A DNA stretch of 64,000 nucleotides from Candidatus Woesearchaeota archaeon. GTDB taxonomy: Archaea > Nanobdellota > Nanobdellia > Woesearchaeales > JACPIF01. Below are positions 2,064 to 55,057 of this stretch, piece by piece (position 1 is the stretch's first letter; each line of letters opens with the position of its first letter). The notes below the pieces were generated by a model that searched no databases, was not told where the DNA came from, and saw only the letters and a program-made list of their open reading frames with translations. Both the position numbers and the translations under genes were made by a program. The stretch lies in assembly GCA_016188215.1 (NCBI GenBank), contig JACPIF010000008.1, positions 101,439 through 165,438 of the forward strand, read 5' to 3'.

Positions 2064-2161
2064 TTAATTTCAAATAATGAGCCGCAACCCACCAACCATA
2101 GTCCCACTACCCACTCCTTTTCAATAATTTTAAATATATCTAATAAAACATACCTCTTGAG

Positions 2162-2335: not shown

Positions 2336-2349
2336 ATAAAGTTTTTCCT

Positions 2350-2763: not shown

Positions 2764-2833
2764 TTTAAAAGTTTCGTCTAACAAATAAAATTTCTACTTA
2801 AAATGTGGTTTTTCTTCATATAACAAGCTTTGC

Positions 2834-3331: not shown

Positions 3332-3333
3332 TT

Positions 3334-3903: not shown

Positions 3904-4101
3904 GGGAAAGGGCAGTTTTGCACATTTAAAAAGGTATTGATAGCTATAAGCTGGATTGCACCTATACTCACGGACAAAATCTATTGAGCAATAGTTGTCC
4001 GTTCGTAATAAGTAAAGGTCATATCTATTGCTCAAATTATTGTGCCCTTTACTATATCTGCTCCGCAAATAATTTAAAGCAGGGGATATTGATTTTATGC
4101 T

Positions 4102-16412: not shown

Positions 16413-16474
16413 ATAGAGAAATGGCTTAATAAGGCTTATACGGCTCTTTATGCAGAGTTATAGAATGTCCAGTG

Positions 16475-17581
16475 CTAGTACACTGTTTCCTCTGGAACAG
16501 CAGCATCATCCATATCCCCTGTTTCAGGGCTTTTTCGCTTGATTGGAATTGAGATATCCTTAACTGGAATTGCGCCAAACTCCTGGATTTCCTTTTCAAG
16601 GTCAATTGCTTGTGTGGCTGAATTAACCACGAACTCAAGCCTATTAAAAAATTGGTTGCGGGTGCACCTGCCCCTGAATTTTGCGGTTGTGCCTAATAGT
16701 GAAGCTTTAGATATCTCAAACAGATCAGGCTGGTCTTTCATGGCAAGGATTTCTGCACTGCTCTTCTGCAAAAGCTGCTCAACTTGGCTGCGGAAGCAGA
16801 CAGCGCGGATGTTTTCAGTGCCGTCATCAATGACAAAATTGAGGAGGAATGCAAAGCCTGGCTGCACTGGCCCATGCTCAGGGCAGGTAAAATTGTCAGA
16901 AAGCCGGACGCGCTTGTTGCACATGCCGCACACTTCAAAGAATTTTAAATCAAAGACCTGCACTATGGTGGCGAACAGCTCGGCGTCTGCGTCCTGCTCT
17001 GATAAATCCTTGATAGATTTTCTGGGTGATTGCTTTGCATACTGGCGGGATGCGCCGTTGCTGCCATTGCTATCAGGAATATTTATTGCCACATCCTTGA
17101 TTTCAGTAAGCAGGTGGCTGTTGTCATTTAGATGCACTTCCAGCCTTCCCGTGTTCTCACGGACATAGCCGTTGCGCACCTTTACGATTGAATTCAGCTT
17201 TATAGAGCGAAGCTTTTCTGCAGATTCGCCCCAGAGAACTATACGGATAGAGCCTGTCTCGTCACCGATGAGCATTGAGCCTACTTTGCCTTCGCGCTTC
17301 TCAGTCTTGAATTCCCTGATATCATATACCTGGAGGACCTTGCCGATTGTTTCAACAGAACGGATGCCAGGCATGATGTTCTTTATCTTGAGCTGCCCGG
17401 TAAACTGCTCAAAGAGCTTGACGCCCAGCTCATGCGCAACAATATGCGCTGCGCCTTCCCTTGATATCAATCCAGACAATTGTGTGAGCTTGTTTTGTAT
17501 CCTTTCCTCAATATCCTTTTGCGGCAATTTAGCCTTTTCAGTTATCGCTGCAACAATCTCATTGTAAGAAAGCTTAATCAT
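16475..17581 (-). CDS. rpa: replication protein A (RPA) single-stranded DNA-binding protein with OB folds and zinc ribbon
   Basis: OB-fold repeats (IGKVLQVYDIREF...GSMLIGDETGSIRIVLWG), C4 zinc ribbon CGMCNKRV...CPEHG; start at ATG 17581 (MIKLSYNE...) rather than 17671. Confidence 0.75.
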   Translation of the reverse strand: MIKLSYNEIVAAITEKAKLPQKDIEERIQNKLTQLSGLISREGAAHIVAHELGVKLFEQFTGQLKIKNIMPGIRSVETIGKVLQVYDIREFKTEKREGKVGSMLIGDETGSIRIVLWGESAEKLRSIKLNSIVKVRNGYVRENTGRLEVHLNDNSHLLTEIKDVAINIPDSNGSNGASRQYAKQSPRKSIKDLSEQDADAELFATIVQVFDLKFFEVCGMCNKRVRLSDNFTCPEHGPVQPGFAFLLNFVIDDGTENIRAVCFRSQVEQLLQKSSAEILAMKDQPDLFEISKASLLGTTAKFRGRCTRNQFFNRLEFVVNSATQAIDLEKEIQEFGAIPVKDISIPIKRKSPETGDMDDAAVPEETVY

Positions 17582-17890
17582 GGGCACGAGGATTCTGGCT
17601 TGGTTTATATATGTTTGGAAAATAGATTTCACAAATATCACAAAACACATTGCGTTTCGTTGGTTTTGCATGGATTTATGGTGTATCTGTAATTTTCAGC
17701 ATTTTATTTATTTCCTTGCTTTTATTTTACTAACTATAACTTGGAGACACTGGGCTGCGCCCATCCACAATAGGAACTTTGTTCCTATGCCAAGAAATTC
17801 CCTGCATTTCCCTGGCATAGGGAAGTCCGCTCTTCTTGCTGTAAATTGTTGTGAGCGGACGACATGATGCCCGGGATTATGCATTAATGC

Positions 17891-34556: not shown

Positions 34557-37253
34557 TTAGGCAGTGCTGTTTGCGGGGAGCTGCGGCCTCAGCTTTGAAG
34601 TAAGGTCCTGCCATACCTGGCTGCCTACCTGGTAGCGGCTGGAGACAAGAGTGGTTGCTCCAGACTCATCGCAGAAGAGGACATTTGCGCCTAAGGCCTG
34701 CTTGTTCATGGTTGTTACGATTGAGCAGATGCTTGCCTCTGGTTTCGTGTATTCTATGCTTACATATGAATCGCCGCCTACTGTCTCAATGACGCCTTTT
34801 ACTGACTTGTCGCCAGCACGGGTAATATACAGCCTGTTGAACTTTTTCACGTTATTCAAAAAAGTAAGGTCAACCTGGATTCCTTCAAAGGCTGGCTTTG
34901 CAGACAAGACTTTGCCGAAGAGCAGGGCAAAGGGCTGCTTGACAAGCTGTACAAATTTCTCAAGAAAATTGAGCTGAGGAGTAAGGCTAATGGGTGTCTG
35001 GCTTAAGATGACTGCCTTTTCCCTGTTGTCATACCAGACGATAGGGCTGCTGCACGCGTGGAACTGGCCGTCATTAACCAATGCGTTGTTGCAGAAGCTT
35101 GCAGGCAGGTCAAAGGTCTCAAGGATAGAAGGCTGCTTATTGATGACGGTGTTAAGGGTCGTGCCGAGCAGTACCTTGCTGCCTTGCCTGATGACGCAGA
35201 AATTGTTGGCGCAAGGCAATTGGGAACCATTTATGCTGCAGCTCGCTATGACATCTGTCTTGACGCTGAAGCCGCTAGGCAAGGAATATTCATAATTATT
35301 AAGCACGTTGGTGAATGTGTCGCAGTAAAGAGTGTAATCTGCGCCGCTGCTGATTTCTGCATTATCCAGCATAGCTATTGCAAGAAGCTTGGTGCGCGAG
35401 CTCCAGTTGCCGTCTTCACAGTAATTGTCGCCTATGTATTGCGTGTCGTTGATGCACTGGATATTGTTGTTGAGCGCCACCGAGAAATCCTGGGTGAAGT
35501 TTTCCAGCAATCCGTGCCTGCTGTTCTTGCTTCCAGGATTAACCAGGCATTGGCTCTTTTTGGGGCAGAAGCCTGTTGCGGTTTCGTCCCAGTTCTTCTT
35601 TACAGGAGATTCAGACCATTCGCCATTGATGCAGCGCTGGCCGTTGGTTGCGGTGCTTGATGCTGAGGTCGATTGATCGTTGAGGCACTTAAAGCCGTCC
35701 CAGCATTGCTCCTGAGTACAGCATTCAGTCTTCTGGGCAACTGCATTGTCCCAAGGAAATGTCTTCAAGGAATTCTTAAGCTCAGCAGACCTGTTCCATA
35801 TGCCTGCGGCTGAGCAGAATGCATGCTGGCCCTGCTGGAAGCCGTTTGGAAGGACTGTACAGAGCGGATTGCTGTGCACGAGCTGGGTACTTGTTATTGA
35901 ATCCCTTAGCGCAGCTATAGAGCCTGAATCAGTCTTGCACCCTTCAAACGTGCCATTAATGCTCATGACCTCTTTTTGAACAGGATTTGTGTTGCTTGTG
36001 ACATAATTTCTTGAGAATACTGGAATTCCGTTCCAGCAGGCTATTGTCCTGTTCGGCTCGTTGTAGTATTCACCAGAATCATCGCCGCAGCATCTTGTGC
36101 CTGTCCAAGTGTAGCTTTTTCCGCCTGAAACGCAGGATTCCTGGCTTGAATCGCCATCTTTCCATACACTGTTGTCGCAGTAGAAATTATTTGAAGTGTT
36201 TGACCAGGAGCCTGAGCTGAAGCAGTTGCTGTTAAAGCTGCAGTCTGTGCTGCTGGGGCAGCAGGATAAAGTGCCGTCAGCAAGATCGCCTTGAGCTGCG
36301 GTAATGTACTCGTCTGCATCATCGCCGCAGCAGGCATGCTCGGCCTCCTGCGGGCCGCCTATCTGCCATTCTGTGCCATCGCAAGAGCTGCACCATAATT
36401 CTGAGGTATCCAAGTTTACAGGATCAAAAGCGCAGCCGCCTGATGCACAGCTATAGTCGCGAGCGCTGCACACCCCGCCATTGCCGCATTGGCCATCGCA
36501 GGATGGCTGGCCTGAAACTACTGGCCTGTTCTCATTGGTTGAATCGTATGCGTTGCAGTCAACTGTCTTCTTTTCACTATCCTGGCCTGTGCAGCGGTAA
36601 GTAGTTAAAGTGGAGGTTGAGCAGGCACTTACCAAAGCGAGGTCCTCGCCGCACTTTCCAGTGTCAGAGCCTGAGGCAGTGCAGCCTTCATTATCAGTCA
36701 CAGTTACCTGGCCAAAATCATTGAACTGCGTCGGGCCGACGCAGTTGTCAGTGCCGCAGTTGCCCTGATCCTTGCCCTGAAAGCAGCCTCTGCTGCCCAC
36801 ACAGTACTTATCTGTTGATTTATCACAGCACCTCTTTGTGGTGTCCCAGAATGATTCTGCAATGCATGAGCATGCCTGATTTGAGTCATCTGGATTCCTT
36901 TGGCCGCTGCCTGCTGCAGTTGCAGGGACTGTGCATTTGCACTTTTCAGGGTTTCCCTCAATGCATGCCTGCTGGGAATAATAGATCTTGAATTCGTCTA
37001 TAGTCAATGTTCCAAAGGAAGAGAACTCGTCCCGCTGGTCATAGCAGCCCGGGCTATAGGTGAAACATGGAGGCGGGACCTGGCATTTTCCAGTGAGGCA
37101 TACTAAACCGGAATTGCAGCTTGTGCCGCTGCAGCAGTTCTCACCATTTCCGCCGCATGGCGGGGGAGGGGGAGGGGGGTTATTCTTGCCTATAACTATT
37201 GCGGAGGCCAGTACAATTATGAGCAAACTCAACCATATCCCTTTTGCTTTCAT
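34557..37253 (-). CDS. giant secreted Cys-rich protein (898 aa) with poly-Pro linker and repeated CCGDD...EY modules
   Basis: Signal peptide MKAKGIWLSLLIIVLASAIVIG, PPPPPPPP, >70 Cys, internal repeats CCGDDADEY / CCGDDSGEYY. Confidence 0.5.
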   Translation of the reverse strand: MKAKGIWLSLLIIVLASAIVIGKNNPPPPPPPCGGNGENCCSGTSCNSGLVCLTGKCQVPPPCFTYSPGCYDQRDEFSSFGTLTIDEFKIYYSQQACIEGNPEKCKCTVPATAAGSGQRNPDDSNQACSCIAESFWDTTKRCCDKSTDKYCVGSRGCFQGKDQGNCGTDNCVGPTQFNDFGQVTVTDNEGCTASGSDTGKCGEDLALVSACSTSTLTTYRCTGQDSEKKTVDCNAYDSTNENRPVVSGQPSCDGQCGNGGVCSARDYSCASGGCAFDPVNLDTSELWCSSCDGTEWQIGGPQEAEHACCGDDADEYITAAQGDLADGTLSCCPSSTDCSFNSNCFSSGSWSNTSNNFYCDNSVWKDGDSSQESCVSGGKSYTWTGTRCCGDDSGEYYNEPNRTIACWNGIPVFSRNYVTSNTNPVQKEVMSINGTFEGCKTDSGSIAALRDSITSTQLVHSNPLCTVLPNGFQQGQHAFCSAAGIWNRSAELKNSLKTFPWDNAVAQKTECCTQEQCWDGFKCLNDQSTSASSTATNGQRCINGEWSESPVKKNWDETATGFCPKKSQCLVNPGSKNSRHGLLENFTQDFSVALNNNIQCINDTQYIGDNYCEDGNWSSRTKLLAIAMLDNAEISSGADYTLYCDTFTNVLNNYEYSLPSGFSVKTDVIASCSINGSQLPCANNFCVIRQGSKVLLGTTLNTVINKQPSILETFDLPASFCNNALVNDGQFHACSSPIVWYDNREKAVILSQTPISLTPQLNFLEKFVQLVKQPFALLFGKVLSAKPAFEGIQVDLTFLNNVKKFNRLYITRAGDKSVKGVIETVGGDSYVSIEYTKPEASICSIVTTMNKQALGANVLFCDESGATTLVSSRYQVGSQVWQDLTSKLRPQLPANSTA

Positions 37254-37256
37254 TTT

Positions 37257-37787
37257 TTATGGCTCTACATTCATGTATATGCTTATATGTGAATAATTAT
37301 ACATTGAGTCTCCATAAGGGAAATCTATGTTTCTTACATAAGCTACAAACTTTGTACGGCCGATAAATCCGTCATTATGATAATATATGGGGAATAACCT
37401 AATCTCCTTAGGCTCTAAAATAAATTGCTCATAATCATATTCAAATAGCCCTGATTTTATAACATCAGCATTTTTGGAAGAATTGACCTCTTTGATGTCA
37501 ACACGCAGATTAACATTATTATCAAATTTATTTATGACGCCTATAAGAAATTCTTTCTTAATCCCGTTTTTGGCAACATACTCGTCCTGATCCAAATATA
37601 CCCTGTCATTTTCATGCCTTAGCTGCGATTTTATATAGGCTTTTTCTGTTTTAATATTTTCCAAGAAACATCCGCAATTTGGATACAGGTCAGTCAAGGA
37701 ATAAGAAAGTGCAAGCGAAAATAGAACAATTATAAGAATTATGAGAACAAACCTCAAACTAACCTTAATCACCGCTTTTTTGCACAT
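37257..37787 (-). CDS. small secreted/membrane-anchored protein, first gene of the minus-strand surface locus
   Basis: MCKKAVIKVSLRFVLIILIIVLFSLALSYS signal/anchor; 4-nt gap to downstream giant gene. Confidence 0.4.
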   Translation of the reverse strand: MCKKAVIKVSLRFVLIILIIVLFSLALSYSLTDLYPNCGCFLENIKTEKAYIKSQLRHENDRVYLDQDEYVAKNGIKKEFLIGVINKFDNNVNLRVDIKEVNSSKNADVIKSGLFEYDYEQFILEPKEIRLFPIYYHNDGFIGRTKFVAYVRNIDFPYGDSMYNYSHISIYMNVEP

Positions 37788-37888
37788 TGTTAAAAGATTG
37801 CTTTTATAGTTATTTAAATATTCCTATTTAAAATTCCGATACTGAGAATTTGGCAAGTTTTATAAAAAAAGTATAATTCCTTATTTTT

Positions 37889-38212
37889 ATGCTAGGGACA
37901 CATATTATAGGGGTAATTAATGGCAAAAATCTAGACTTGTCCAATATAGACCAGAAAATAACTAAAGCTGCGAATTTGACAGGGCTAAAGATAGTCAGAA
38001 AGGCTTCCTATAGATTTAGCTCAAATAAAGGAGCTACTTATTGTTTTATTTTGTCACAGTCCCATCTCATAATACACACATGGCCTGAAAAAGACTCAAT
38101 TGCCTTTGATTTGTTTACTTGCGGGGGAAAGGGCATGGGGCTCAAGGCTGTTAGGAGGATTGCAGAATACACTAACGGAAAGATAAAGAAGTTAAAAACC
38201 ATACGATTATGA
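37889..38212 (+). CDS. speH: S-adenosylmethionine decarboxylase proenzyme (pyruvoyl-dependent, SpeH/SpeD class 1)
   Basis: 107 aa; ILSQSHLIIHTWPEKDSIAFDLFTCG matches the AdoMetDC family LSESHxSIHTWPE...FTCG signature (self-cleavage Ser region). Confidence 0.7.
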   Translation: MLGTHIIGVINGKNLDLSNIDQKITKAANLTGLKIVRKASYRFSSNKGATYCFILSQSHLIIHTWPEKDSIAFDLFTCGGKGMGLKAVRRIAEYTNGKIKKLKTIRL

Positions 38213-39816
38213 GATTTGGATATTTGTTTGGAAATAGGAAAGCAGATTTTTGCATGATTTTCCTTATAATGTTCTTGACAGGCTTTTCAAGCCTTCTTTA
38301 TGAGGTTGTCCTACTGCTGGTGTTTTCAACAATAATAGGAGCAACTGAGACTTCTATAGCTATTATACTCTCAACATTCCTGCTAGGTTTGGCACTTGGG
38401 GGCTTATTCGGCGGGATTTTGTCAAAGAGAAAGGTAAACCATGTGCTAATCCTAGTTTTTATAGAAATCGTCATTGCTTTATTTGCCTTTACATCCATGC
38501 CCATGATTAAAGAGATAGCGCTATTGTCTTCAAGATCATTCGGGCAGTTCTTTTTGATCCTGCTACTTGTGTTAATCCCCACATTTTTAATGGGCGTGGA
38601 AATCCCATTAGCTGTAAGGATATTGACATATGGAAGCAAACCTGCACATCCAACTGGATTTGTATATTTTTCTGACACTTTCGGGGGCGTATTAGGCTCC
38701 TTTTTATCCGGAATAATAATAATACCTATCTTAGGATTCTATGGCGCCATGATTTTCGGCGGCGTATTGAATATCTTTGCTGCTATACTTGGGATTATGC
38801 TTTTTATAAAATCCAGGGATTTGAGATCTTACTTACCTTTAATTATAATACTGATGATTTTTATTGGTGCAGCTGTTATGTTGAATAAAGAAAATTTCTA
38901 TAAACAGGACCTTAATTTCTTTAATTCAATATATGATAAAAAAGACTTTTATTATGCTGAAACCATATATTCCACAATAAGCCCGTTTCAGTCCATTATA
39001 ATAGCAAATTCCCCATATTTCGGGAATCAGCTATACATCAATGGCGATTTGCAGGTATCGGATTATGATTCGCTTATTTATCATGAATTCCTGGTCTTAC
39101 CTGCGTTTGCGGTCCACCCCAATCCCAAGAAGATATTAGTTATTGGCGGAGGTGATGGCGGGGCTTTATATCAAATCTTAAAATTTAATGCTACAAAAAT
39201 TGATCATGTAGAATTGGATAAAAAGGTTATTGATGTATCCCAGAATTACCTGAAAAATGTGCATAAAGGAACACTTGATAATCAGCGTGTAAATACCTTT
39301 ATTGAAGATGGAAGATACTTCTTAGCCAATAATAAGGATAAGTATGACATCATAATTATTGATCTGCCAGACCCTAAAAAGATAGAATTGGCAGCCCTTT
39401 ATTCCAAAGAATTCTACCAATTAGTGCATAATTCTCTAGAAGATGACGGCGTAATGGTGACACAGACAAACTCTCCATACCATTACCTTTTCGCATATGC
39501 CTCAACCTATAATGCAATTAGGAGCATATTTCCGAATGCAGAGGCTTATACTGTTCAGATACCCTCAATGGGCAATACAGGATATATAATAGCTTCAAAG
39601 ACCACAAATTTGAAAATTGTTAAAAATAAGATATACAGCAAATGGTACAACAGCGATAAACATGAGGAGATATTTTACATGCCTGAATATTTAACCAGCT
39701 TCCTGGAAAATAATACTGTGCCTATCTCAACTGATACCAATCCGGTTATCCATCTTTATAGCCAACCAGTATATTATGCTAAAGGAATTTTGGATACAGA
39801 AGTTGAATCTAAATGA
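38209..39816 (+). CDS. speE: polyamine aminopropyltransferase (spermidine synthase) fused to N-terminal ~7-TM membrane domain
   Basis: C-terminal domain ILVIGGGDGGALYQILKF...DIIIIDLPDP (SAM-binding GGGDG and Asp of SpeE); ATGA overlap with speH gives speH-speE operon. Confidence 0.7.
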   Translation: MRFGYLFGNRKADFCMIFLIMFLTGFSSLLYEVVLLLVFSTIIGATETSIAIILSTFLLGLALGGLFGGILSKRKVNHVLILVFIEIVIALFAFTSMPMIKEIALLSSRSFGQFFLILLLVLIPTFLMGVEIPLAVRILTYGSKPAHPTGFVYFSDTFGGVLGSFLSGIIIIPILGFYGAMIFGGVLNIFAAILGIMLFIKSRDLRSYLPLIIILMIFIGAAVMLNKENFYKQDLNFFNSIYDKKDFYYAETIYSTISPFQSIIIANSPYFGNQLYINGDLQVSDYDSLIYHEFLVLPAFAVHPNPKKILVIGGGDGGALYQILKFNATKIDHVELDKKVIDVSQNYLKNVHKGTLDNQRVNTFIEDGRYFLANNKDKYDIIIIDLPDPKKIELAALYSKEFYQLVHNSLEDDGVMVTQTNSPYHYLFAYASTYNAIRSIFPNAEAYTVQIPSMGNTGYIIASKTTNLKIVKNKIYSKWYNSDKHEEIFYMPEYLTSFLENNTVPISTDTNPVIHLYSQPVYYAKGILDTEVESK

Positions 39817-39828
39817 ATTTGCCAAGAA

Positions 39829-39849
39829 CCACCATTCTTAGAATGGTGG
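39829..39849. terminator. perfect 9-bp stem hairpin (CCACCATTC tta GAATGGTGG) between convergent speE and UbiA-family genes; possible bidirectional terminator
   Basis: Read directly from sequence; lies 13 nt after speE stop and 26 nt after the minus-strand gene stop. Confidence 0.35.
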
Positions 39850-39874
39850 AATTCTGACATTAAATAGAGTTCTT

Positions 39875-41350
39875 TCAAACCATATAGAGCATATAGAACA
39901 CAATAATGCCAAAAATGCTGGACATCAGATATACAGGCCGCTCATCCCCTTTTTTATAATATAGGAAGGCTGTTGCGATTGCAGTTGCCGCTGAACCTGC
40001 GATAAAGGCGGGATTCTGAATGAATAGCGATGGAATCAAGAAAGAAAAAAACAGTAAATATGTAACGATCTTTTTCCCTTTATTTCTCCCAAGGAGGGTA
40101 TATAAGTTAATTATCTTTTCCTTGCTATCGCCTTTAATATCTTTGAAGTCTTTTGAGAAGGAAGAGCTAAGGCCTGTTATCAAGAGCCATGCTCCAAATT
40201 TTAAATTGAGACTGCTAAGAATTTTTGAGGCATCATTGGTTATAAGAAATCCGGAGGCCAAACATATAAGCAGGCTTAATGCTATAATGAAATGACCAAG
40301 TAAGTTGTTTCTCAACCTAAATGGGGGGACAGAATATAGAACTCCAAACAGCAGGCCTATGAGTACTATGAAAAGGACTTTTAAATTAATAATTGCTGAG
40401 AGGGAGATTGCAAATGCTGAGCATATCAAAGCAATGTTTTTAAGTTCGTGTTTTTCCAGTGTTTTTTTGACAAGGGGCCTTTTAGCATTGCTTATTTTAT
40501 CAATACTATAATCATAAATATCGTTTAACGCTACTGCACTTTGTCTTACAAAAAATATTGCAATGATGGCGTATGCCGCATTGTACCAGTTAATTGAATA
40601 ACCGAAAGAGTAGGCTGCTAAAACACCGAGAGCTGCCACAATCATAAATTTGACTGCTCGGCCTGGCCTTAATTCAAAAAGCATTGCCCAAAGCTTTTTC
40701 TTATTTTTATTATTCGCATTGTAATATAGAATAGAAGATAAAACAAGAAGCGGGAGGAAATAGTAAGCAGGAAGGAAATAGTCATAGTAAAAATCCCCTT
40801 TGCCTTCTCCGAAAAAGATATCTGGAGTCGAAAGTATGGTAATTATGAGCGTAATTGCAAAAATTGCGGCAGCTGTCCGCAGCAGGGATTTGCTTCTAGT
40901 AAATGCGTACCAAGATACCCCTGATAAAGCTAGGATAAGCTCTAGAATTATTCCATAGCTTGCGTCTCCCTGCACTATCGAAAGAGTAAATAAGTTGCCT
41001 AAAAAGTTTGGGATTGTAGCATATACGTATCCTGCTGTCCGATTGAAAATAAAGAAATCAAGCAAGGGTGGAAGAAGGATGACCATGTACATCCTAGCAC
41101 CAAAATTAGCTACATCAATAAATGATTTTTTAATTATGAGAGATAGAGCAACGGATATGAGAAGAAAAGCTATGATAAAATAATATACATTTTCTAAATA
41201 AAATCTGATATAATCCTGCGTACCGTCAAGCTCAATAGGGTATGTCAACAACATCCATTCAAGAACAACCCTTACCGAAGAAAGAACTATGACCAAAACT
41301 ATTATCTGTTTAAGGCTGAGTCTTTTTTTCAGAAGAGTTTGTACCTGCAT
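39875..41350 (-). CDS. UbiA-family prenyltransferase (DGGGP synthase-like) with extra N-terminal multi-TM domain
   Basis: ALNDIYDYSIDKISNAKRPL (NDxxDxxxD motif 1) and DFKDIKGD (second Asp-rich motif) in C-terminal half; N-terminal ~240 aa additional TM helices. Confidence 0.55.
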   Translation of the reverse strand: MQVQTLLKKRLSLKQIIVLVIVLSSVRVVLEWMLLTYPIELDGTQDYIRFYLENVYYFIIAFLLISVALSLIIKKSFIDVANFGARMYMVILLPPLLDFFIFNRTAGYVYATIPNFLGNLFTLSIVQGDASYGIILELILALSGVSWYAFTRSKSLLRTAAAIFAITLIITILSTPDIFFGEGKGDFYYDYFLPAYYFLPLLVLSSILYYNANNKNKKKLWAMLFELRPGRAVKFMIVAALGVLAAYSFGYSINWYNAAYAIIAIFFVRQSAVALNDIYDYSIDKISNAKRPLVKKTLEKHELKNIALICSAFAISLSAIINLKVLFIVLIGLLFGVLYSVPPFRLRNNLLGHFIIALSLLICLASGFLITNDASKILSSLNLKFGAWLLITGLSSSFSKDFKDIKGDSKEKIINLYTLLGRNKGKKIVTYLLFFSFLIPSLFIQNPAFIAGSAATAIATAFLYYKKGDERPVYLMSSIFGIIVFYMLYMV

Positions 41351-41359
41351 AAAAGAAAG

Positions 41360-42217
41360 TTAAGAGAGTGTCTTTAATATGCTTTCTATTTCTTCCTTTG
41401 ATTTCCCAATCAATGGCTTTAGAACTATATTATTTGAATTTGCTTCTGATTTCTGCCCAAGTGTTGCCCCTGTAACTATTACGGCTTTATTTGGAATATC
41501 TGTTAATGGAAGAAATTGCAAAAGATTGTAATTATTGAATTTATTTAATTTGTTGGCTAATTCAGACTGTTTGCTAGTTTCATTTAATACTAAAATTACT
41601 TCGCAGCCCCGCTTCATCATGAACCATGCTGCCACTATAGATTTCTCGTCTTCAATCAGGCAATAGACAGTTCCCTGTGAGCCAAGCGGCAGGCCGCCGT
41701 ATCCCTGAATGCGATTGTCAAAGACATAGCAAAGATCATCCATGACTTCAATGCCAATTTCTAAATCAAAATCCTTGAGCGAGACTTTCATGCCCGTTGC
41801 TCCTGCTATAAAAGCTCCAAAAACTTTGTTGTAAGCAAAGCTGTCAGTGCCTCTTTTGTTGCCTACGTTCCTGGTGCTCACCCTAAATGTCTTATTTGAG
41901 AAATCTTTGCCTTTCAAGAGCGTAGTGATTGCCTCTTTTATAGCATCAATATCATTCGGAATTTCAAGAGCATAGCTAAAAGAGGAGATGCCAAAGACAT
42001 TCTTAATAGGTTCCTCCTGCCTGGCGGCGTATACGGGATCAGGAATGTGCACTATGATTCTGGTGTTCTTTCTCTGAAGAGAGCATTCAATGTTATTGAC
42101 ATTGCACACCTCCTGAATATTTGCGGCAAGCTGCTTCTCAAACATGCTGCGGTTCCTGCCTTTTATGGCAATTTCATTATAGCGGATAATGATGCGGGGT
42201 TTCATTAGATGGCTCAT
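41360..42217 (-). CDS. ThiI-like THUMP-domain protein with degenerate PP-loop (likely not a functional tRNA 4-thiouridine synthetase)
   Basis: THUMP-like N-terminus IIIRYNEIAIKGRNRSMFE; region aligned to ThiI PP-loop reads TVYCLIEDEKSIVAAWFMMKRGCEV (SGGxDS replaced by IEDEKS); 285 aa, shorter than canonical ~380 aa. Confidence 0.5.
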   Translation of the reverse strand: MSHLMKPRIIIRYNEIAIKGRNRSMFEKQLAANIQEVCNVNNIECSLQRKNTRIIVHIPDPVYAARQEEPIKNVFGISSFSYALEIPNDIDAIKEAITTLLKGKDFSNKTFRVSTRNVGNKRGTDSFAYNKVFGAFIAGATGMKVSLKDFDLEIGIEVMDDLCYVFDNRIQGYGGLPLGSQGTVYCLIEDEKSIVAAWFMMKRGCEVILVLNETSKQSELANKLNKFNNYNLLQFLPLTDIPNKAVIVTGATLGQKSEANSNNIVLKPLIGKSKEEIESILKTLS

Positions 42218-47625: not shown

Positions 47626-50600
47626 TTACTGGCTGAACCATACAGTCAACCCTTCCTGGCGCTCGCTTGCCTTGCCGAATACGCCTTCTATCCTGCGCTT
47701 AGTGACTTCAAGGCTTTGCTTGAGATAAGGAGGTGCATCATATACCTGCGCCAGGTTTACCGAACTCTCAAGGTACTTAATGACTGAGCCTTCAGTGACT
47801 GTAAATATGAGCTTGCTGCCGCATGCGTCACATTTTCCCTGCAATGAAGGCCTCCTGAACTTCTCATTGCATTTTGAGCAGCGAAATTCCTGGGTGGAGA
47901 ATTTCCTAAGATTCCCTTTTATGTCTTTCAGGAAATGCTTTTCAATGACTAATTTTGCAACATCTGCTGTATCAACTGCGCGTATTTTCCGTGCAAGCTC
48001 CATCTGCCCCTGCAGCTTCTCTTCCATAGTGGGAATGGTCTTGTAGGCTGAGCAGAGCACTCCACTATTGATATTTGAAGTTTCATGCGTATACCCCATG
48101 CCCTCGTACTGGAGGGGAGTATGAAGCCTGTCGCCTAGCTTTTCAAGCTTGATGTCGTGTTTACCGCGCTGGCAGGCATGGTAGAATTCAAGTGGATATT
48201 TCCAGACAACGTCAATGTCAAATACCATGTCATCAACTTCCGCAGGATTCAGGCGAGAGGTCATGACCAAGCAGGCGTCCTGCACTGATCCGCGATGATG
48301 CGGCAGGTATTGCCGGGAGAAGTTGAGCAGGGCGTCCATCAGCAGGATAATTGAGCTCTCATCGCCGTCAAGGTCCCGGCGCATGGCTGCATGAAACATT
48401 GGATGGGCAAAGAATCCCTGGGTCTTGCTGAAGCCTATGATCCTGCCAGCGATCGCGGCGGAGGTATGCGGGGCTATGCCCAACACTAGGTGGCCTATCA
48501 AATCCTCCTCGTTCTGCAAATTGTAATACCTCGGCAGACCGTACAGTTTTTCCAGCAAGTCATCTGAAAATTCTGCAATGCGCATCAGAACCTTGCCTGC
48601 GCCTTCATTGGTTGATTCAGAACCAGAAGGGAGGATGATATCCTGCGGCTTGATTTCAAGCACTTGATCATCTGCTGCCAATTCTTTCCCGTGGATATCA
48701 ATTGTGTACCCCAGCTCGTGAGCCTTTGAAATGCCCAAACCAATCTCTTTTGGCCTGAAATGGGTTATGCCGAGCTGAGTCATGTCATACCTAGTGGTCC
48801 CATCCTTGTTGACACAGATGTCGTGCTTGGCGCGGAGGATGCCTTTGAGAAGATGTTCAGTTACGTGCTCTTTATTTGAGGTTCCACGGACTCCTTTAAA
48901 ATTGTCAGGCACTACCTTGTTGCCTGCCTTTGCTGCTGCAGCTTCGTATAATTTTCCGATGGTAATCTTCCTTGTTGAGAATTTTGAGGCGCGTCCATGC
49001 CGGCATTCAGGGTCAGACCCATAGCCGCATATCTTGCAGAAATACTGCTGCAGGCATTGGCTGCCGCAGCGATAGCATTTTGCGGCAACCATGTCAAGGG
49101 CGCATGCTGCACAGTAAAAATTGGGAAAGCTTGATTCTACAAAACCAGTTTCAAGCGCTGCCTGGAAGCTTCGCATCCTGCCTCCTTCCTCGCCAACGGG
49201 AAAAAGCACTGAGGGAGATCCCTTCAGCTTCCGAAGTTTAGCCTTTTCGGGCCTGCCCATGCGCGCTCCGATGAAGATTCCTGCCTTATCCATTATCCTG
49301 ATACCCATGGCTTTTTCAACTGTCCCCAGAACACTGTCGGCCATGCCGGCAGGTCCCGCGGCAGACAGGATGGTGTACATTGTTTTTGCAACATCACCCT
49401 CAAGCACTATAAACTCCAGCTGCACTAAAATGTGGGGAATACCAAGTATCTCTAGTGTGCGTTTTGGCCCTTCCTGGAAGGGCAAGACTATTTTTTCTAT
49501 GTCATTGTAGCTGGATGGCTCCCCCACAATTGCGCCTTGGGTGAACCAGACCTTTAATGCTGCAAATTCTTCCAATGAGATGGCCGTCCAGTAGTATGTA
49601 AATTGCGGATGAAGCGGGATGTTGTAGGTTTTACTGATATTATATGCCTCATCAAAACTCAAACTGGGCAGAATTGTAAGAGGGTTTGAGATTAGAGATT
49701 GAAGGCGCAAATAATCTGGCTGCAGTTGTTCCTGCTGCCCTATATTGCCTATATTGGCTTGCCTGTACTGGGCTTGTGCAAATGAGGATTCCAGTTCCTG
49801 CGCCCACCATTCCTCACAGTATCCTGGCTGCACCAATGGATGACCCCTGTTTAAGAAGTCGCCATAGTTGATTAGGATGTCACCTAAGTACAATATCTCC
49901 TTGATTTCCTTAGCCAACCTGCGGGCCTCACGTTCATCCTGCAGCTTCAGCACTGAGCCGTTCTGCAGAAGGACAACAGGACCTTCAATTGAATCGCAGG
50001 AAGTAACTGTAGTTGCTTTCCCAGGACGCTCAAGCTTGAGCTGAGTGCCGACCGCTATATACTTGTCAAGGATGTGCATAGTAGCAGGATGGATGGCGTA
50101 CGAGGAAAAACCTGATGTCCGCGTCCGGCCATACCTTAGGCGGAATCCGCCATAGCGCATAGGATATGTAAGGATGGGTCTTCCTGCAATCATGTCAACC
50201 ATGAACGTATGGTCGGGCCCAATTTTCTTGTCGCCTGTTATCTTGCCTTTTGACTTGATCTCGCGCTGAATTGCAATAAATATCTCAAGAAAATTCCAAT
50301 GCTCAAGGCCAAAATCCTTGCCCCAGCGGGAAAGCTGCTTCCACAGCTTGACTGCCTTCTGCGCAATGCATTCGCCAAGGACAAGGCACGGACCGTTCCT
50401 TATCTGGTTGGTCTCTATCCGTCCCAGAAACTTATAATTAGATACTTCAATAGTTTCAGAAGGGTCGCCGTCAATCTGCACAGGAACATGCTGCACTAAA
50501 AATACGATCTCCTTCTCACTAGGCAAGTATTGTAGGTTGGTGATGCGCTCATGATAATCATACATCTCAATGACAGCTCTCTTAGTCTCCTCATCCGTCG

Positions 50601-51150
50601 GATCGTATACATCATACCCCATCTGCTTCCTGATATAGTCTGCAATAAGCACGGATACTGAGGCGCCTGTGCCACCCGCGCTCCGGATTGGGCCTGAGTA
50701 GCATATAGCAAGATATTCTTTACCGTCTTTCCGTTTCCTCACCTTAAGGTTAGTGAATCCCTCTAACGGTGAAGCAACTGTCCCAAGTGTATGATATGCA
50801 AACCCTACCCTAATCCCGGCTTCCATTGCCTCAAGCTTATTGGAAAAAGTACAGAACTTTTCCTGCGCAATCTCCAGCGCTATGACCAATGAGATACGCC
50901 AGTCAAGCACACTGTACTGCTGCTCAAGCTCCCTCAGGCGTTTCGGGATGCCTTTGCCCTTTATTTGAGGGCAAACCGCCGAGACAAGGCCTTCAACTCG
51001 CTCTGCCATATCAATTGCGACAGGGATGTCAACATGCGTTTCAGGGTCAAAACCAAGCGAGCGCGCAGCTTCTGCTACAGAGTAGGCCTCCTTTGTTTTC
51101 CGATCAATCTCCTCAAAATATGCAAGCATTTGTTTTGAAGCTGCTACCAT
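47626..51150 (-). CDS. polD2: DNA polymerase II (PolD) large subunit DP2
   Basis: 1174 aa; zinc fingers CAACALD...CYRCGSQC, CKICGYGSDPEC and C-terminal CSKCNEKFRRPSLQGKCDACGS; length typical, no intein. Confidence 0.85.
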   Translation of the reverse strand: MVAASKQMLAYFEEIDRKTKEAYSVAEAARSLGFDPETHVDIPVAIDMAERVEGLVSAVCPQIKGKGIPKRLRELEQQYSVLDWRISLVIALEIAQEKFCTFSNKLEAMEAGIRVGFAYHTLGTVASPLEGFTNLKVRKRKDGKEYLAICYSGPIRSAGGTGASVSVLIADYIRKQMGYDVYDPTDEETKRAVIEMYDYHERITNLQYLPSEKEIVFLVQHVPVQIDGDPSETIEVSNYKFLGRIETNQIRNGPCLVLGECIAQKAVKLWKQLSRWGKDFGLEHWNFLEIFIAIQREIKSKGKITGDKKIGPDHTFMVDMIAGRPILTYPMRYGGFRLRYGRTRTSGFSSYAIHPATMHILDKYIAVGTQLKLERPGKATTVTSCDSIEGPVVLLQNGSVLKLQDEREARRLAKEIKEILYLGDILINYGDFLNRGHPLVQPGYCEEWWAQELESSFAQAQYRQANIGNIGQQEQLQPDYLRLQSLISNPLTILPSLSFDEAYNISKTYNIPLHPQFTYYWTAISLEEFAALKVWFTQGAIVGEPSSYNDIEKIVLPFQEGPKRTLEILGIPHILVQLEFIVLEGDVAKTMYTILSAAGPAGMADSVLGTVEKAMGIRIMDKAGIFIGARMGRPEKAKLRKLKGSPSVLFPVGEEGGRMRSFQAALETGFVESSFPNFYCAACALDMVAAKCYRCGSQCLQQYFCKICGYGSDPECRHGRASKFSTRKITIGKLYEAAAAKAGNKVVPDNFKGVRGTSNKEHVTEHLLKGILRAKHDICVNKDGTTRYDMTQLGITHFRPKEIGLGISKAHELGYTIDIHGKELAADDQVLEIKPQDIILPSGSESTNEGAGKVLMRIAEFSDDLLEKLYGLPRYYNLQNEEDLIGHLVLGIAPHTSAAIAGRIIGFSKTQGFFAHPMFHAAMRRDLDGDESSIILLMDALLNFSRQYLPHHRGSVQDACLVMTSRLNPAEVDDMVFDIDVVWKYPLEFYHACQRGKHDIKLEKLGDRLHTPLQYEGMGYTHETSNINSGVLCSAYKTIPTMEEKLQGQMELARKIRAVDTADVAKLVIEKHFLKDIKGNLRKFSTQEFRCSKCNEKFRRPSLQGKCDACGSKLIFTVTEGSVIKYLESSVNLAQVYDAPPYLKQSLEVTKRRIEGVFGKASERQEGLTVWFSQ

Positions 51151-51151
51151 T

Positions 51152-52681
51152 CTAAAACCTCAATATCCTCAATTCACGCGTCTGCAAATTCAGCACTGGA
51201 ACCCTGCCTGGCTCAGGATTATGGCCAAGCTTTTCCTGGAATGGAGTCTTGTCCTGCCAGCATGAGCCGCAGATGAGGGTTACATGCTTGTAGGCGCGGG
51301 CAGAAACTTTATGCAGGTGGCCAGTAACAAAAATGTCGGGGACTTTATCAATAACTAAAGGATCTGACTCGGGATCCGGGATATAAAGGGTGGAAGTGTG
51401 TGTTGGGGCAAGGTGCCGTTTCTTGAGCATAAATCTCATGATTAAATCCGGTCTGTCATATCCTCCATTGTTCCGTATAGATTCCACGTTGGCAATGTAG
51501 TAGTCAAAAGAGTAGCCATGGTAAATAAGGACATCAAATCCCGGAAAGCCGGGCGCAGATTCTATATTTACCATTCCGGGATTGGAAACCATGACAACAT
51601 TTTCAAGCTTCCAGAGATCAGCTGCAAAATCCTTGTAGAGCTCAGGCTGCGGCTCGGAGATGCGCATGGCATCGTGATTTCCAGGAGAGATAATGATGGT
51701 GATGTGCTTGGGAATTCTGGACAGCAGAGCAGCGCATTCCTTGTACTGGGAATAGATATCGGGTATCTCCAACTCTTTCTCCTGGCCTGGATAAATGCTG
51801 CAGCCATCCACTATGTCACCTGCAACAAAAATGTATTTTATCTTAGATACCCATTCATGCTGCTTTCCACTACCCCCATTAATCCATGCAAGGAACCTTT
51901 CAAATGTTTCCCTGAGGAAAAGCCGTGAGCCTACATGAAGGTCGGAAAGGAACAGGGCATATGATTCTATCGGCGCTTTCTTTTGCTCACGGAAGCTGAT
52001 GTCTGGCTCAATGATGCTGTTTGCAAATACTATGTTGTTGCCAGGAGCGCCGACGATACCTACTACCTGGTCAAGCACAATATCCTGGGCATTGCCAAAC
52101 AGTTCTTTATTATTCTTGTTCACAAACACCTTGACAGAGCCAGTGAGGTCTTCAAGGATAAGGCTTATGCCGCCGCTTTTTGTTGTTTCCTTATCCTTGA
52201 CCATGCCAATAATGGCAACAGGCTCCCTGTCACGCTTGCCGGCCAGGCGATTAATGGATAAAGGACTTTGCAGCTCAGGCCGCGCCTGTAATATTTTTTT
52301 GAGAGCTGTAAACCTGTTAACATAGTATGCAACAAAATCCTGCAGTTCAATCTGCTTTGGTTTTTTTGTATAGGAGAATAAGATTTTTACATTATTGCCT
52401 GCGGCGCGAGGGAGATGGGCTACCGGAATTTCGGATTCTTGAACAGGGCTGGATATGAGGTTTGATTCAGGCCTTGGGTGTGGTATGAATCTTTGTTTCA
52501 GTTTCCTTAGCTCATACATCAGTTGTGATTCGCTGCCGTCATATGATTCCAGAAATTCCTTGATGCTGTTAAAATCAAGCTCATTAGTAAGTGCAAGCAG
52601 CTCTTGGTCAACCAGAATATTCTTTGCAAGAAGGTACGTAATAAGCTCTTTTCTCCTGCTTAGGCTTGCTTCCATGGTCAA
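51152..52681 (-). CDS. polD1: DNA polymerase II (PolD) small subunit DP1 (Mre11-like phosphoesterase domain)
   Basis: 509 aa; calcineurin-like motifs ALFLSDLHVG, FVAGDIVDG, SPGNHD, YHGYS, FVTGHLH; 1-nt spacing to DP2. Confidence 0.85.
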   Translation of the reverse strand: MTMEASLSRRKELITYLLAKNILVDQELLALTNELDFNSIKEFLESYDGSESQLMYELRKLKQRFIPHPRPESNLISSPVQESEIPVAHLPRAAGNNVKILFSYTKKPKQIELQDFVAYYVNRFTALKKILQARPELQSPLSINRLAGKRDREPVAIIGMVKDKETTKSGGISLILEDLTGSVKVFVNKNNKELFGNAQDIVLDQVVGIVGAPGNNIVFANSIIEPDISFREQKKAPIESYALFLSDLHVGSRLFLRETFERFLAWINGGSGKQHEWVSKIKYIFVAGDIVDGCSIYPGQEKELEIPDIYSQYKECAALLSRIPKHITIIISPGNHDAMRISEPQPELYKDFAADLWKLENVVMVSNPGMVNIESAPGFPGFDVLIYHGYSFDYYIANVESIRNNGGYDRPDLIMRFMLKKRHLAPTHTSTLYIPDPESDPLVIDKVPDIFVTGHLHKVSARAYKHVTLICGSCWQDKTPFQEKLGHNPEPGRVPVLNLQTRELRILRF

Positions 52682-52705
52682 AGATGAGAAGAGTTATGCT
52701 TGTGT

Positions 52706-53917
52706 TCAAGTTAGGTCTAACTCTTCCTCTAACATCTGCTTTATCTTATTAGTTACTTCCTGCTGTGTCGCAAGGCTTATCTCCCTCGTCCGGCCGTGTC
52801 TCCCTTTTGAGACTACACGCCCTTGGATAATACCAAGCATGTCAAGCTCTGCCAAAATATCTGAAATGCGGCGCTGCGTCAGCGGGCGAAGACCTACACG
52901 ATTGCAAAGCTGCCGATATATATCATATACTTCGCCTGTCAGCACAGGTTCTTTGGTTGCATGCAGCAACTTGATGATGGCATAGGTAATGCATTGATAC
53001 TGTTTGGGCTGGGTAGCTACTATCTCTATGATATAGTCACGCTCAATCTTTTCCTCAGCCTCGTCAATATGCTCAAGACTTACCGCGGTTGTCCCGTTGC
53101 GCTCGGCGATCTCTGCAGCAACACGCAGCAGCTCGATGGCGCGGCGCGCATCGCCATGGTCCCTTGCAGCATATGCGGCACATTTTTCAATAACACCTGC
53201 CTCAAGAGAATTTTCCCTGAACGCCATGCCAGCACGGTATGCAAGGATGTCCTTGATCTGGAGCGCGTTATACGGGGGGAAAACAATGCCTTCCTCTGAC
53301 AGCGAGCTCCTAACCCTTGGATCCAGATTATCCAAAAATTTTGCATCGTTTGAGATACCGATGATAGCCACCTGAGCCTGCTTGAGCTCCTCATTAATCC
53401 TGGTCAGGTTGTAGAGTATCTCATCTTCTGCACGTTTTATGAGATGATCTATCTCGTCAAGGATGAGGAGGATTATCTGCTCTCTCTCATCAATTACAGA
53501 ATGGAATATCTTGTAGACCTCATCTGTTGGCAGCCCAGTTGCTGGAACAGCCTTGTTAAGGTCGCGGGCAAGCTGGGCAATAAGCCTGTATTCAGTATCT
53601 GCAATCTTCTTTAGCTTGCAGTTGAGGTAAAGAACTTTGAGGGGCGCCTTGCTCTTTTCAGCAACCGAAAGCAATTGGTTTGTTACATGTTTTATGGTTA
53701 CTGTTTTACCCGTACCGGTTTTTCCGTATAACAGCACGTTAGAGGGCTTTTCTTTCTTGAGTGTGGGCGCAAGAATCTTTCCCAGCTGCTCAATTTGATC
53801 GTCACGATGCACAATCTGGTCAGGAACAAAATTCGTTTGTAGCGCCTTTTTGTTTAAGAAAGTAGAGTAGTTGCTTACATACTGCTCAAAATATGCTGCC
53901 AACCCCCTTTGTGCCAT
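52706..53917 (-). CDS. orc1: Orc1/Cdc6 replication initiator
   Basis: 403 aa; Walker A VLLYGKTGTGKTVTIKHV, Walker B LILDEIDHL, sensor motifs and C-terminal winged helix; immediately adjacent to predicted oriC. Confidence 0.9.
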   Translation of the reverse strand: MAQRGLAAYFEQYVSNYSTFLNKKALQTNFVPDQIVHRDDQIEQLGKILAPTLKKEKPSNVLLYGKTGTGKTVTIKHVTNQLLSVAEKSKAPLKVLYLNCKLKKIADTEYRLIAQLARDLNKAVPATGLPTDEVYKIFHSVIDEREQIILLILDEIDHLIKRAEDEILYNLTRINEELKQAQVAIIGISNDAKFLDNLDPRVRSSLSEEGIVFPPYNALQIKDILAYRAGMAFRENSLEAGVIEKCAAYAARDHGDARRAIELLRVAAEIAERNGTTAVSLEHIDEAEEKIERDYIIEIVATQPKQYQCITYAIIKLLHATKEPVLTGEVYDIYRQLCNRVGLRPLTQRRISDILAELDMLGIIQGRVVSKGRHGRTREISLATQQEVTNKIKQMLEEELDLT

Positions 53918-54256
53918 ATGGTTCCAGAGGAAATAGGGGTTATTTAAAGTTTTATGTTGTGGAAAGGGTGTGCCCCCCTGGTTTCTTATGGAGATGTTTT
54001 CGGGATGTCCGTCACTTTTTATTATTATATATTATTATTTTCTATATTGATTATTATTATATATTATATATTTAGATATTTATATATTATATTGATATTA
54101 TATATCATATATCTATATTTTAATATTAAAGAAGGAGAAGAGTGTTGCACAGGAAACTAAGGGGAGCTAGAGAAACCCACCCACCACTACCTGTTGCTAT
54201 TATAAAGTAACAACTTTGTAGAAAGATTTAAATATAAGGTAATAATCCGATTAAAC
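53918..54256. promoter_or_regulatory. predicted chromosomal replication origin (oriC): ORB-like elements flanking an AT-rich DNA-unwinding element
   Basis: ORB-like TTCCAGAGGAAATAGGGG (53922-53939), inverted ORB-like CCCCCCTGGTTTCTTATGGAG (53973-53993), DUE 54011-54130 (>90% A+T with ~18-nt direct repeats TTATTATTATATATTAT), ORB-like TTGCACAGGAAACTAAGGGG (54145-54164); matches Pyrococcus/Sulfolobus ORB consensus TCCAnnGGAAAC..GGGG; classic oriC-cdc6-polD arrangement. Confidence 0.65.
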
Positions 54257-55057
54257 ATGATAATGCAAAAGGAAATATTAGGGAAATTACGCGATTTTGG
54301 GTTAAATTCTTATGAAATAAGGCTTTGGGTAGCGCTGCTCTCCCGCGGCATAAGCACAGCAGGCGAACTTTCTGATATAGCCAATGTGCCAAGGAGCAGA
54401 AGCTATGATGTCTTAGAAAGCCTTGAAAAGAAAGGATTTGTCATGACAAAGGTCGGCAAGCCTATAAAATATATTGCAGTGCCTCCAGAAGAGGTTTTTG
54501 AGCGTGTTAAAAAGAGAATTAAGGTGAACACGGACGAAAGGCTGGCAATAATAGATAATATGAAGAAAAGCACGGTCCTTGATGAACTCAACTTGCTACA
54601 TTCAACAGGATTGGAGCTTGTGGAGCCTTATGATCTATCCGGCTCATTAAAAGGGCGGGAAAACCTGTACACCCACCTCGAAACAAGGCTCAAGAACGCT
54701 AAGCAGTCCATAGTTATATCAACAACTGCGCAGGGCCTTATCAGGAAAGGCGCGGCGCTCAGGAAAGCATTGCAAAGGGCGCAGGAGCGGGGAGTGCAGG
54801 TTAAGATCCTTACTGCATTGGGTAAGGAAAACCAGGATGCTGCCAAGGAGCTTTCAAAATTTGCAGAGATAAGAAGCAAGGCAAACCCTGCACGGTATGT
54901 TATGATAGATGGGAAAGAGATAACGTTCATGCTATCTGATGACAAGCAAGTGCACGCAAATTATGACACTGGAATCTGGGTCAATACACCATTCTTTACT
55001 GCCGCTATTGAATCAATGTTCCAGAGAGAATGGGAAGGCTGCAGGCCGTACAAGTAA
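54257..55057 (+). CDS. TrmB-family transcriptional regulator
   Basis: N-terminal wH YEIRLWVALLSRGISTAGELSDIANVPRSRSYDVLESLEKKGFV typical of TrmB; ~160 aa C-terminal effector-like domain. Confidence 0.6.
   Translation: MIMQKEILGKLRDFGLNSYEIRLWVALLSRGISTAGELSDIANVPRSRSYDVLESLEKKGFVMTKVGKPIKYIAVPPEEVFERVKKRIKVNTDERLAIIDNMKKSTVLDELNLLHSTGLELVEPYDLSGSLKGRENLYTHLETRLKNAKQSIVISTTAQGLIRKGAALRKALQRAQERGVQVKILTALGKENQDAAKELSKFAEIRSKANPARYVMIDGKEITFMLSDDKQVHANYDTGIWVNTPFFTAAIESMFQREWEGCRPYK

Follow-up and report, generated by a model that had tools for sequence, protein, structure and literature searches.

A predicted Orc1/Cdc6-dependent chromosomal replication origin of the oriC1 type upstream of orc1 in an uncultured Woesearchaeote

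Background

In Pyrococcus abyssi and Pyrococcus furiosus, the chromosomal replication origin (oriC) is located directly upstream of the single cdc6/orc1 initiator gene, which is itself followed by dp1 (PMC1904270), and its origin recognition boxes (ORBs) are arranged as an inverted repeat on either side of A+T-rich DNA (Myllykallio 2000; Matsunaga 2001, 2007: PMC1904270). Both features are also found in the DNA analysed here, a 64-kb stretch from a Candidatus Woesearchaeota archaeon (DPANN, Nanobdellota) that is hereafter called the window and to which the skew and ORB results for this organism apply. In the window, a 339-nt gap separates orc1/cdc6 from a divergent trmB-like gene and, judging from its sequence, is very probably the Orc1/Cdc6-dependent chromosomal oriC, of the oriC1 type, of this uncultured Woesearchaeote. 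The predicted origin is followed by cdc6 and by the genes for the small (dp1) and large (dp2) subunits of DNA polymerase D (polD); in Pyrococcus as well, dp2 comes after dp1. An earlier note on this DNA had likened the gene order to that of the Pyrococcus origin and, as far as oriC-cdc6-dp1 is concerned, the order found in the window (oriC-cdc6-dp1-dp2) agrees with the published one (PMC1904270).

The likeness to Pyrococcus extends to the boxes themselves, whose core is nearly identical (GTTCCAGAGGAAAT in the window versus GTTCCAGTGGAAAT in P. furiosus). When the core of the box closest to orc1 is compared with that of P. furiosus ORB1, only 1 of 14 positions differs and this position is a non-conserved one. 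Differences concern the G-string, which begins 8 nt after GGAAAT in the Pyrococcus ORBs but after 1-4 nt in the window, and the number and location of the boxes. Indeed, Pyrococcus possesses arrays of 13-bp mini-ORBs together with a second ORB cluster inside dp1 (PMC1904270), whereas the window is limited to three full ORBs and its dp1 (51152-52681) contains no match of at least 6 bits to the position weight matrix (PWM) described below. The two also differ in the polarity of their GC skew, which follows the bacterial rule in Pyrococcus (PMC1868953) and would be inverted in the window if the locus is the origin. As for the trmB-like gene, no TrmB neighbour of oriC is reported in the Pyrococcus literature cited here.

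The closest solved homologue of the initiator encoded in the window is Orc1-1/Cdc6-1, the initiator of Sulfolobus oriC1, with which it shares its DNA-contact residues (Robinson 2004; 2QBY; PMC3089459, PMC3607249). In Sulfolobus oriC1, as in the window, inverted ORBs surround an unwinding element beside the initiator gene, following the minimal logic of an ORB(-), a duplex unwinding element (DUE) and an ORB(+) (10.64898/2026.08.15.744077); Sulfolobus, however, has three origins and three initiators, while the phylum to which the window belongs has a single Orc1. Haloarchaeal oriC1 is likewise adjacent to orc1, with ORBs that end in a G-string and flank an A+T-rich unwinding element (PMC1868953, PMC4010727), and it displays an inverted GC-skew polarity with a C-rich leading strand (PMC1868953), a situation shared by the window if the locus is the origin. 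Unlike the phylum of the window, haloarchaea possess a large number of orc1 paralogues as well as several origins (PMC1868953, PMC4010727) and, unlike the window itself, they have extended, halophile-specific G-strings and do not show the polD operon arrangement.

Three origin recognition boxes in the orc1-trmB gap

A scan retaining one genome per species identified 80 related loci (L005-L084) whose Orc1 is 57-75% identical to that of the window and which are mostly labelled as Woesearchaeota, Nanoarchaeota or Nanoarchaeia (DPANN). A PWM of 30 columns, with the consensus TTCCAnAnGAAAyNAAGGkGT, was trained only on the orc1-upstream regions of these 80 genomes, the window being excluded. When both strands of the window were scored with this matrix, the three highest-ranking matches all fell in the 339-nt gap. 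The best of them, ORB2 (53973-53993, minus strand; CCCCCCTGGTTTCTTATGGAG, which reads CTCCATAAGAAACCAGGGGGG on the minus strand), reaches 26.0 bits (scoring window 53968-53997), followed by ORB1, the orc1-proximal box (53922-53939, plus strand; TTCCAGAGGAAATAGGGG), with 22.5 bits (scoring window 53918-53947), and by ORB3, the distal box (54145-54164, plus strand; TTGCACAGGAAACTAAGGGG), with 17.9 bits (scoring window 54141-54170). The fourth match has 13.1 bits, and 400 block shuffles predict 0.0425 matches with a score of 17.9 bits or more in a 64-kb window. The earlier note had placed three ORB-like elements at exactly these coordinates, and their ORB-like nature holds under a properly trained matrix; with regard to its claim that they match the ORB consensus, all three pass the relatives-trained PWM but ORB3, the lowest-scoring, carries TGCA instead of TCCA. 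A loose consensus search gave a comparable picture, with three of its five window-wide matches lying in the gap, and no further sub-threshold box was detected by the PWM in the intergenic region except for the reverse reading of ORB1.

The matrix was also applied to the oligonucleotides of P. furiosus for which binding data are available (sequences in PMC1904270). Those bound in electrophoretic mobility shift assays (ORB1-3) obtain 12-14 bits, or 16-17 bits when only the 14-nt core is considered, versus about -20 bits for the non-binding mutant and the control oligonucleotides.

In the three boxes, a full ORB is composed of a TCCA-N3-GAAA dyad followed by a G-string. The core of ORB1 starts 6 nt from the orc1 ATG and its G-string is directed away from the gene. 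ORB2 is inverted relative to both ORB1 and ORB3 and presents its TCCA end to the unwinding element, as does ORB3 with its TGCA end from the opposite side, so that the pair formed by ORB2(-) and ORB3(+) flanks the A+T block with the dyad ends inward and the G-strings outward. The succession of ORB2(-), unwinding element and ORB3(+) corresponds to the ORB(-)/DUE/ORB(+) arrangement of oriC1-type origins, which has been described as the minimal pattern of Cdc6-type origins. The survey describing it, which included Nanobdellota, reports the pattern for 67% of predicted origins when genomes are complete or assembled to chromosome level (10.64898/2026.08.15.744077).

Elsewhere in the window, a lone mini-ORB-like site (GTTCCAGAGGAAAC; 16472-16501, minus strand; 13.1 bits) was found at the 3' end of an open reading frame (16475-17671, minus strand). 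Its first 13 nt are identical to the ORB1 core and it has no G-string. In Pyrococcus, single mini-ORBs are not bound in vivo (PMC1904270).

An A+T-rich unwinding element between inverted boxes

The duplex unwinding element located between ORB2 and ORB3 (54011-54130) is composed of 92.5% A+T, in agreement with the value of more than 90% given by the earlier note, and its core (54016-54129) of 94.7% A+T. No other 120-nt stretch of the window is as rich in A+T (0.933 versus 0.783 for the runner-up), and the element is also the least stable 100-step duplex there, with -86.4 kcal/mol versus -107.2 kcal/mol for the next one. Since the window has a mean of -135.4 kcal/mol and a standard deviation of 8.1, the stability of the element is about 6 standard deviations lower. 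The stretch had also been said to consist of direct repeats of about 18 nt, a description that has to be dropped: Tandem Repeats Finder reported periods of 2, 3, 7, 8, 32 and 41, and shift autocorrelation revealed no 18-nt periodicity in the stretch, self-identity at shift 18 being 0.45 and without a peak. Finally, an Rfam scan of the whole window returned no RNA family at the gathering score, and the intergenic region is therefore not a known RNA gene.

Conservation of the locus in related genomes

An unseeded search for enriched 8-mers in the 450 nt preceding orc1 in the relatives returned TCCATAGG, CATAGGAA, GAAATGAA, ATGAAGGG and AAGGGGTG, the remainder being A+T-rich words. In these genomes, PWM matches of at least 12 bits occur at a density of 5.89/kb in the 500 nt upstream of orc1 versus 0.077/kb elsewhere, which represents a 76-fold difference. 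The order and orientation of the boxes are constant in most of the 57 loci having enough upstream sequence and are identical to those of the window: relative to orc1, an ORB(-) at about -7 is followed by an ORB(+) at about -70 to -140, by the A+T block and by a distal ORB(-). More specifically, the box equivalent to ORB1 is found 5-8 nt ahead of the orc1 start in 35 relatives, ORB2 is conserved in L005 and L006, and most relatives have both a "+" ORB 70-140 nt before orc1 and, bordering the A+T block on its far side, a distal "-" ORB. This layout holds for genomes with a GC content of 24-63%. An A+T block of at least 85% is retained between the inverted ORBs, including in genomes of 55-63% GC, and this argues for selection for easy melting rather than mere compositional drift. 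No prior account of Woesearchaeal ORBs was found in the literature.

Gene content around the origin is conserved as well, with orc1, dp1 and dp2 being syntenic in 79 of the 80 relatives and the genes for the Hjc resolvase and a metallo-beta-lactamase (MBL)-fold nuclease occurring close by in some loci. In about 36 of the approximately 52 relatives with enough upstream sequence, the gene facing away from orc1 across the origin is the TrmB-like one. This synteny bears on the possibility that the origin belongs to an extrachromosomal element, integrated together with its own orc1, and is not that of the chromosome. Archaeal replicator-initiator pairs often derive from such elements (PMC4010727) and low-GC islands do exist elsewhere in the window; the locus itself, however, has an ordinary local GC content, neither an integrase nor repeat borders were noticed in its vicinity, and its orc1 keeps company with the essential polD genes, next to Hjc and the MBL-fold nuclease in some genomes, in all but one of the 80 relatives. 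In addition, the initiator is single-copy in the phylum: of the 208 complete genomes of Nanobdellota, 206 have one ORC1 (10.64898/2026.05.13.725050). Taken with these data, an integrated element appears highly unlikely.

Several observations were made on the related loci themselves. Five of them (L008, L022, L028, L032 and L045) share an ORB-like match of 14-17 bits at the same place inside dp1 (…TCnATAAGAAAnnnnGGnGG…), between about +2440 and +2490 relative to the orc1 start. This match, which recalls the dp1 ORB cluster of Pyrococcus but is absent from the dp1 of the window, probably corresponds to a conserved peptide. Some of the 80 loci come from metagenome-assembled genomes entitled "uncultured Methanosarcinales archaeon" that group with Woesearchaeota/Nanoarchaeota by Orc1 identity and locus structure; their label is apparently a placeholder or was mis-assigned. 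An identical Orc1 was encountered on contigs from four sequencing runs (SRR12113385, SRR12113420, SRR12113422 and SRR12113431). The assembly ends less than 1 kb upstream of orc1 in 28 of the 80 related contigs and in all four contigs (L001-L004) with an identical Orc1, suggesting that assemblies recurrently break at the A+T-rich origin.

A palindrome within the unwinding element of the relatives

The unwinding element of the relatives contains a palindrome, TTTC[T/A]ATAT[T/A]GAAA, that is found in exact form in 33 of 62 loci and with at most one mismatch in 50 of 62. The expectations from local shuffles are 0.01 for exact copies and 0.41 for copies with at most one mismatch, and 1 and 5 such copies, respectively, occur in the remaining 545 kb of locus sequence. 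Where present in L005-L084, the palindrome always occurs as a single copy per locus, 100-700 nt upstream of orc1. It is located about halfway between the two boxes of the inverted pair, the median distances being 112 and 104 nt (interquartile ranges 60-160 and 70-174), and coincides with a switch from T-rich to A-rich DNA, where the mean A-T skew changes from -0.18 distally to +0.20 towards orc1.

The copy present in the window (54039-54052; TTTCTATATTGATT) is degenerate, with 2 mismatches relative to the clade consensus, and is not significant individually, as 3 matches with at most 2 mismatches occur in the window; the copies of the two closest relatives have two mismatches as well. It lies 53.5 nt from the ORB2 core, just under the interquartile range of the relatives, and 100.5 nt from the ORB3 core. 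Because this copy is degenerate, the palindrome, if functional, may be dispensable in the sub-lineage of the window.

Three other explanations of the palindrome were considered and set aside. In the first case, that of a hidden ORB, comparison of the consensus by eye revealed neither the TCCA motif nor the GG of the G-string. In the second case, that of a hairpin, the variants found in the half-sites are non-compensatory, which argues against such a constraint. In the third case, a binding site for the TrmB-like regulator is unlikely because the palindrome is present at loci without an adjacent trmB and the trmB promoter has a different dyad, of the TACT-N7-AGTA type. The palindrome was further used, as the 17-mer TTTTCTATATAGAAAAT, to search metagenomes: of 120 matches, 6 adjoin an orc1 homologue and 7, including one on a contig without orc1, are accompanied by two or more ORBs within 400 nt, the rest being located in unrelated A+T-rich DNA. 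With most matches being unrelated A+T-rich DNA, the 17-mer is not diagnostic alone.

No prior account of an unwinding-element palindrome, and no Sulfolobus counterpart of it, was found in the literature that was searched. We tentatively regard it as a possible, previously undescribed functional element of Woesearchaeal origins, with slightly more reason to doubt than to accept this proposal. It could be a landmark for the start of melting or MCM loading, or the site of a dimeric origin factor.

Strand asymmetry and gene orientation

Replication-type asymmetry was separated from transcription-type asymmetry by counting G and C at fourfold-degenerate codon positions. To the left of the locus, the coding-strand skew is +0.205 for plus-strand genes and -0.222 for minus-strand genes, meaning that the plus strand is G-rich, with a skew of about +0.21 over 1-52.7 kb irrespective of gene direction; over 54-64 kb it is about 0. 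The cumulative plus-strand (G-C) at fourfold sites rises steadily to ca. 53.9 kb and then reaches a plateau. The best change point is located at 52,499 (2-lnL support interval 50,344-54,340), with a 2dLL of 22.1 versus 9.8 for the 95th percentile of the permutations and 19.4 for their maximum. Replication-type asymmetry thus changes at the locus, which is compatible with an origin.

The cumulative curve has the shape of a maximum at ca. 53.9 kb, not of a minimum, and under the bacterial rule of a G-rich leading strand this would imply forks moving rightward over 1-53 kb and a termination at about 54-60 kb. That the locus is a replication terminus, or else a rearrangement breakpoint, nevertheless has very little probability. 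A terminus offers no reason for three ORBs, an unwinding element and an initiator gene to be assembled at this place and conserved across the order, it would leave 73% of the genes of the left 54 kb head-on to replication, and a skew of inverted polarity is documented at proven haloarchaeal origins (PMC1868953). Conversely, 35 of the 48 genes to the left of the locus are co-directional with a fork leaving it and an origin is therefore favoured over a terminus.

Several points nonetheless weigh against the prediction of an active chromosomal oriC. The 10 kb on the right have a skew of +0.02 +/- 0.04 instead of the mirror-image value of -0.21. If replication starts here, the leading strand is C-rich, contrary to the rule in bacteria and Pyrococcus, and such an inversion has a precedent at proven origins in haloarchaea only (PMC1868953). 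Fourfold skew pooled over the 80 relatives has no replication component within +/-4 kb and displays the coding-strand effect only (about -0.13). Finally, some haloarchaeal ORB clusters adjacent to orc1 are inactive (PMC4010727), and other origins or ORB clusters may exist elsewhere on the chromosome, of which 64 kb were covered. The skew analysis that the earlier note had proposed as a check gives, at the scale of the window, a divided answer: the change point falls at the locus, while the polarity is inverted and the short right flank has no mirror image.

Two low-GC islands (1001-4000 and 37001-42000) have a GC content of about 36-37% versus ca. 45% elsewhere in the window. The second one encodes an S-adenosylmethionine decarboxylase, a fusion of a major facilitator superfamily protein with spermidine synthase, a UbiA prenyltransferase and a ThiI/THUMP protein. 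Some of the genes in this second island depart from the local skew, which makes a recent acquisition possible.

Flanking genes and promoters

The genes on either side of the gap are those named in the earlier note, as judged from their Pfam domains. The orc1/cdc6 gene (52706-53917, minus strand) encodes an initiator of 403 aa with Cdc6_C, Cdc6_lid and AAA_22 domains. It is followed after 24 nt by the gene for the polD small subunit DP1 (51152-52681, minus strand; Metallophos and DNA_pol_E_B domains and an OB fold) and, after a further 1 nt, by the gene for the large subunit DP2 (47626-51150, minus strand; PolC_DP2_N, central and catalytic domains, E-values of 1e-81 to 1e-115), the three genes forming a probable operon. 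On the other side of the predicted origin, the divergent gene (54257-55057, plus strand) codes for a TrmB-like transcriptional regulator with TrmB and Regulator_TrmB domains. Genes for the Hjc resolvase and an MBL-fold nuclease occur farther right in the window.

The best match of Orc1 in the PDB is Sulfolobus Cdc6-1 (2QBY_A; E = 1.9e-102, over the full length), followed by Aeropyrum ORC1 (2V1U). In the alignment with 2QBY_A, residues G128/L129, R349 and R373 of the window protein correspond to G120/L121 of the Sulfolobus initiator-specific motif, R341 of the helix-turn-helix and R365 of the wing, all of which have a role in ORB binding according to mutagenesis of Sulfolobus Orc1-1 (PMC3089459). 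A complete Orc1/Cdc6 (AAA+, lid and winged-helix domains) with intact DNA-contact residues is hence encoded beside the predicted origin.

Promoters were assigned from TATA boxes on the basis of sequence and conservation, prediction of sigma-70 promoters and terminators being unsuited to an archaeon. For orc1, a TATA box is predicted from the archaeal consensus at 53941-53948 (minus strand; TTTAAATA on that strand), where it abuts the G-string of ORB1. This box ends 23 nt before the orc1 ATG and the orc1 mRNA is therefore predicted to be leaderless. ORB1 spans the entire interval from the TATA box to the start codon, and the corresponding arrangement (CTTTAWATA-CC-...TTTC..TGGAA..ATG) is kept in 35 relatives, with 5-8 nt between the ORB1 equivalent and the ATG. 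The position of ORB1 suggests that bound Orc1 would repress its own gene and probably also the downstream polD genes.

Such an overlap raises the question of whether the gap might be either just an orc1 promoter, equipped with operators through which Orc1 controls the transcription of orc1-polD, or a dormant origin, with replication normally starting elsewhere. This is the main alternative to oriC, albeit an improbable one. It would account for ORB1 lying over the TATA-to-ATG interval, a position kept in 35 relatives, and is in line with the right flank having no mirror-image skew; moreover, several haloarchaeal ORB clusters adjacent to orc1 have no autonomously replicating sequence activity (PMC4010727) and oriC is located 349-453 kb away from cdc6 in two Thermococcus species (PMC4640148). 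Autoregulation, however, would require ORB1 alone and leaves unexplained both the inverted ORB2 and ORB3 around a 95% A+T block, which is kept between inverted boxes even at 55-63% GC, and the origin-specific palindrome. The skew change point at the locus also speaks against it, as does the single-copy initiator of the phylum (10.64898/2026.05.13.725050), which makes dormant origins linked to orc1 paralogues unlikely.

The trmB side of the gap has signals of its own. From the archaeal promoter consensus, a transcription factor B recognition element and TATA box are predicted at 54220-54234 (plus strand; AGAAAGA-TTTAAATA), 22 nt separating the TATA box from the ATG, and are kept in L006. A dyad, GTTGCTA-N8-TAACAAC (54193-54214), is found just upstream of this TATA box and is also kept in L006, while TACT-N7-AGTA-like dyads occupy the matching place in the trmB promoter of several relatives. 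The dyad is a candidate TrmB autoregulatory operator and probably lies outside the origin proper.

Predicted mode of action and significance

The PWM results, the inverted ORB pair, the homology of Orc1 and the conserved architecture and gene order all support the earlier note in its identification of the gap as oriC. By analogy with cultured archaea, Orc1 monomers would bind each ORB through their winged-helix domain and the initiator-specific motif of the AAA+ domain, and would bend and underwind the DNA as described for Sulfolobus, Aeropyrum and Pyrococcus (PMC3089459, PMC1904270, PMC4010727). The inverted Orc1 complexes at ORB2 and ORB3 would then recruit MCM to the A+T-rich core (54016-54129), whose melting would lead to bidirectional replication. 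As for ORB1, its location is such that Orc1 bound there would repress the transcription of orc1, whose mRNA is predicted to be leaderless, and probably that of polD.

The predicted oriC follows the standard archaeal design and would also be called by current origin-prediction software, as an initiator-adjacent origin of the ORB(-)/DUE/ORB(+) pattern. In practical terms, it fixes the likely replication start on the contig, which aids genome rotation, growth rates derived from read depth and the checking of assemblies. The overlap of the orc1 TATA box with ORB1, the palindrome and possibly the inverted skew are leads for the replication biology of DPANN archaea, although unsurprising in kind. 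Overall, the ORB/unwinding-element/Orc1 logic of cultured archaea would reach the Woesearchaeota essentially unchanged.

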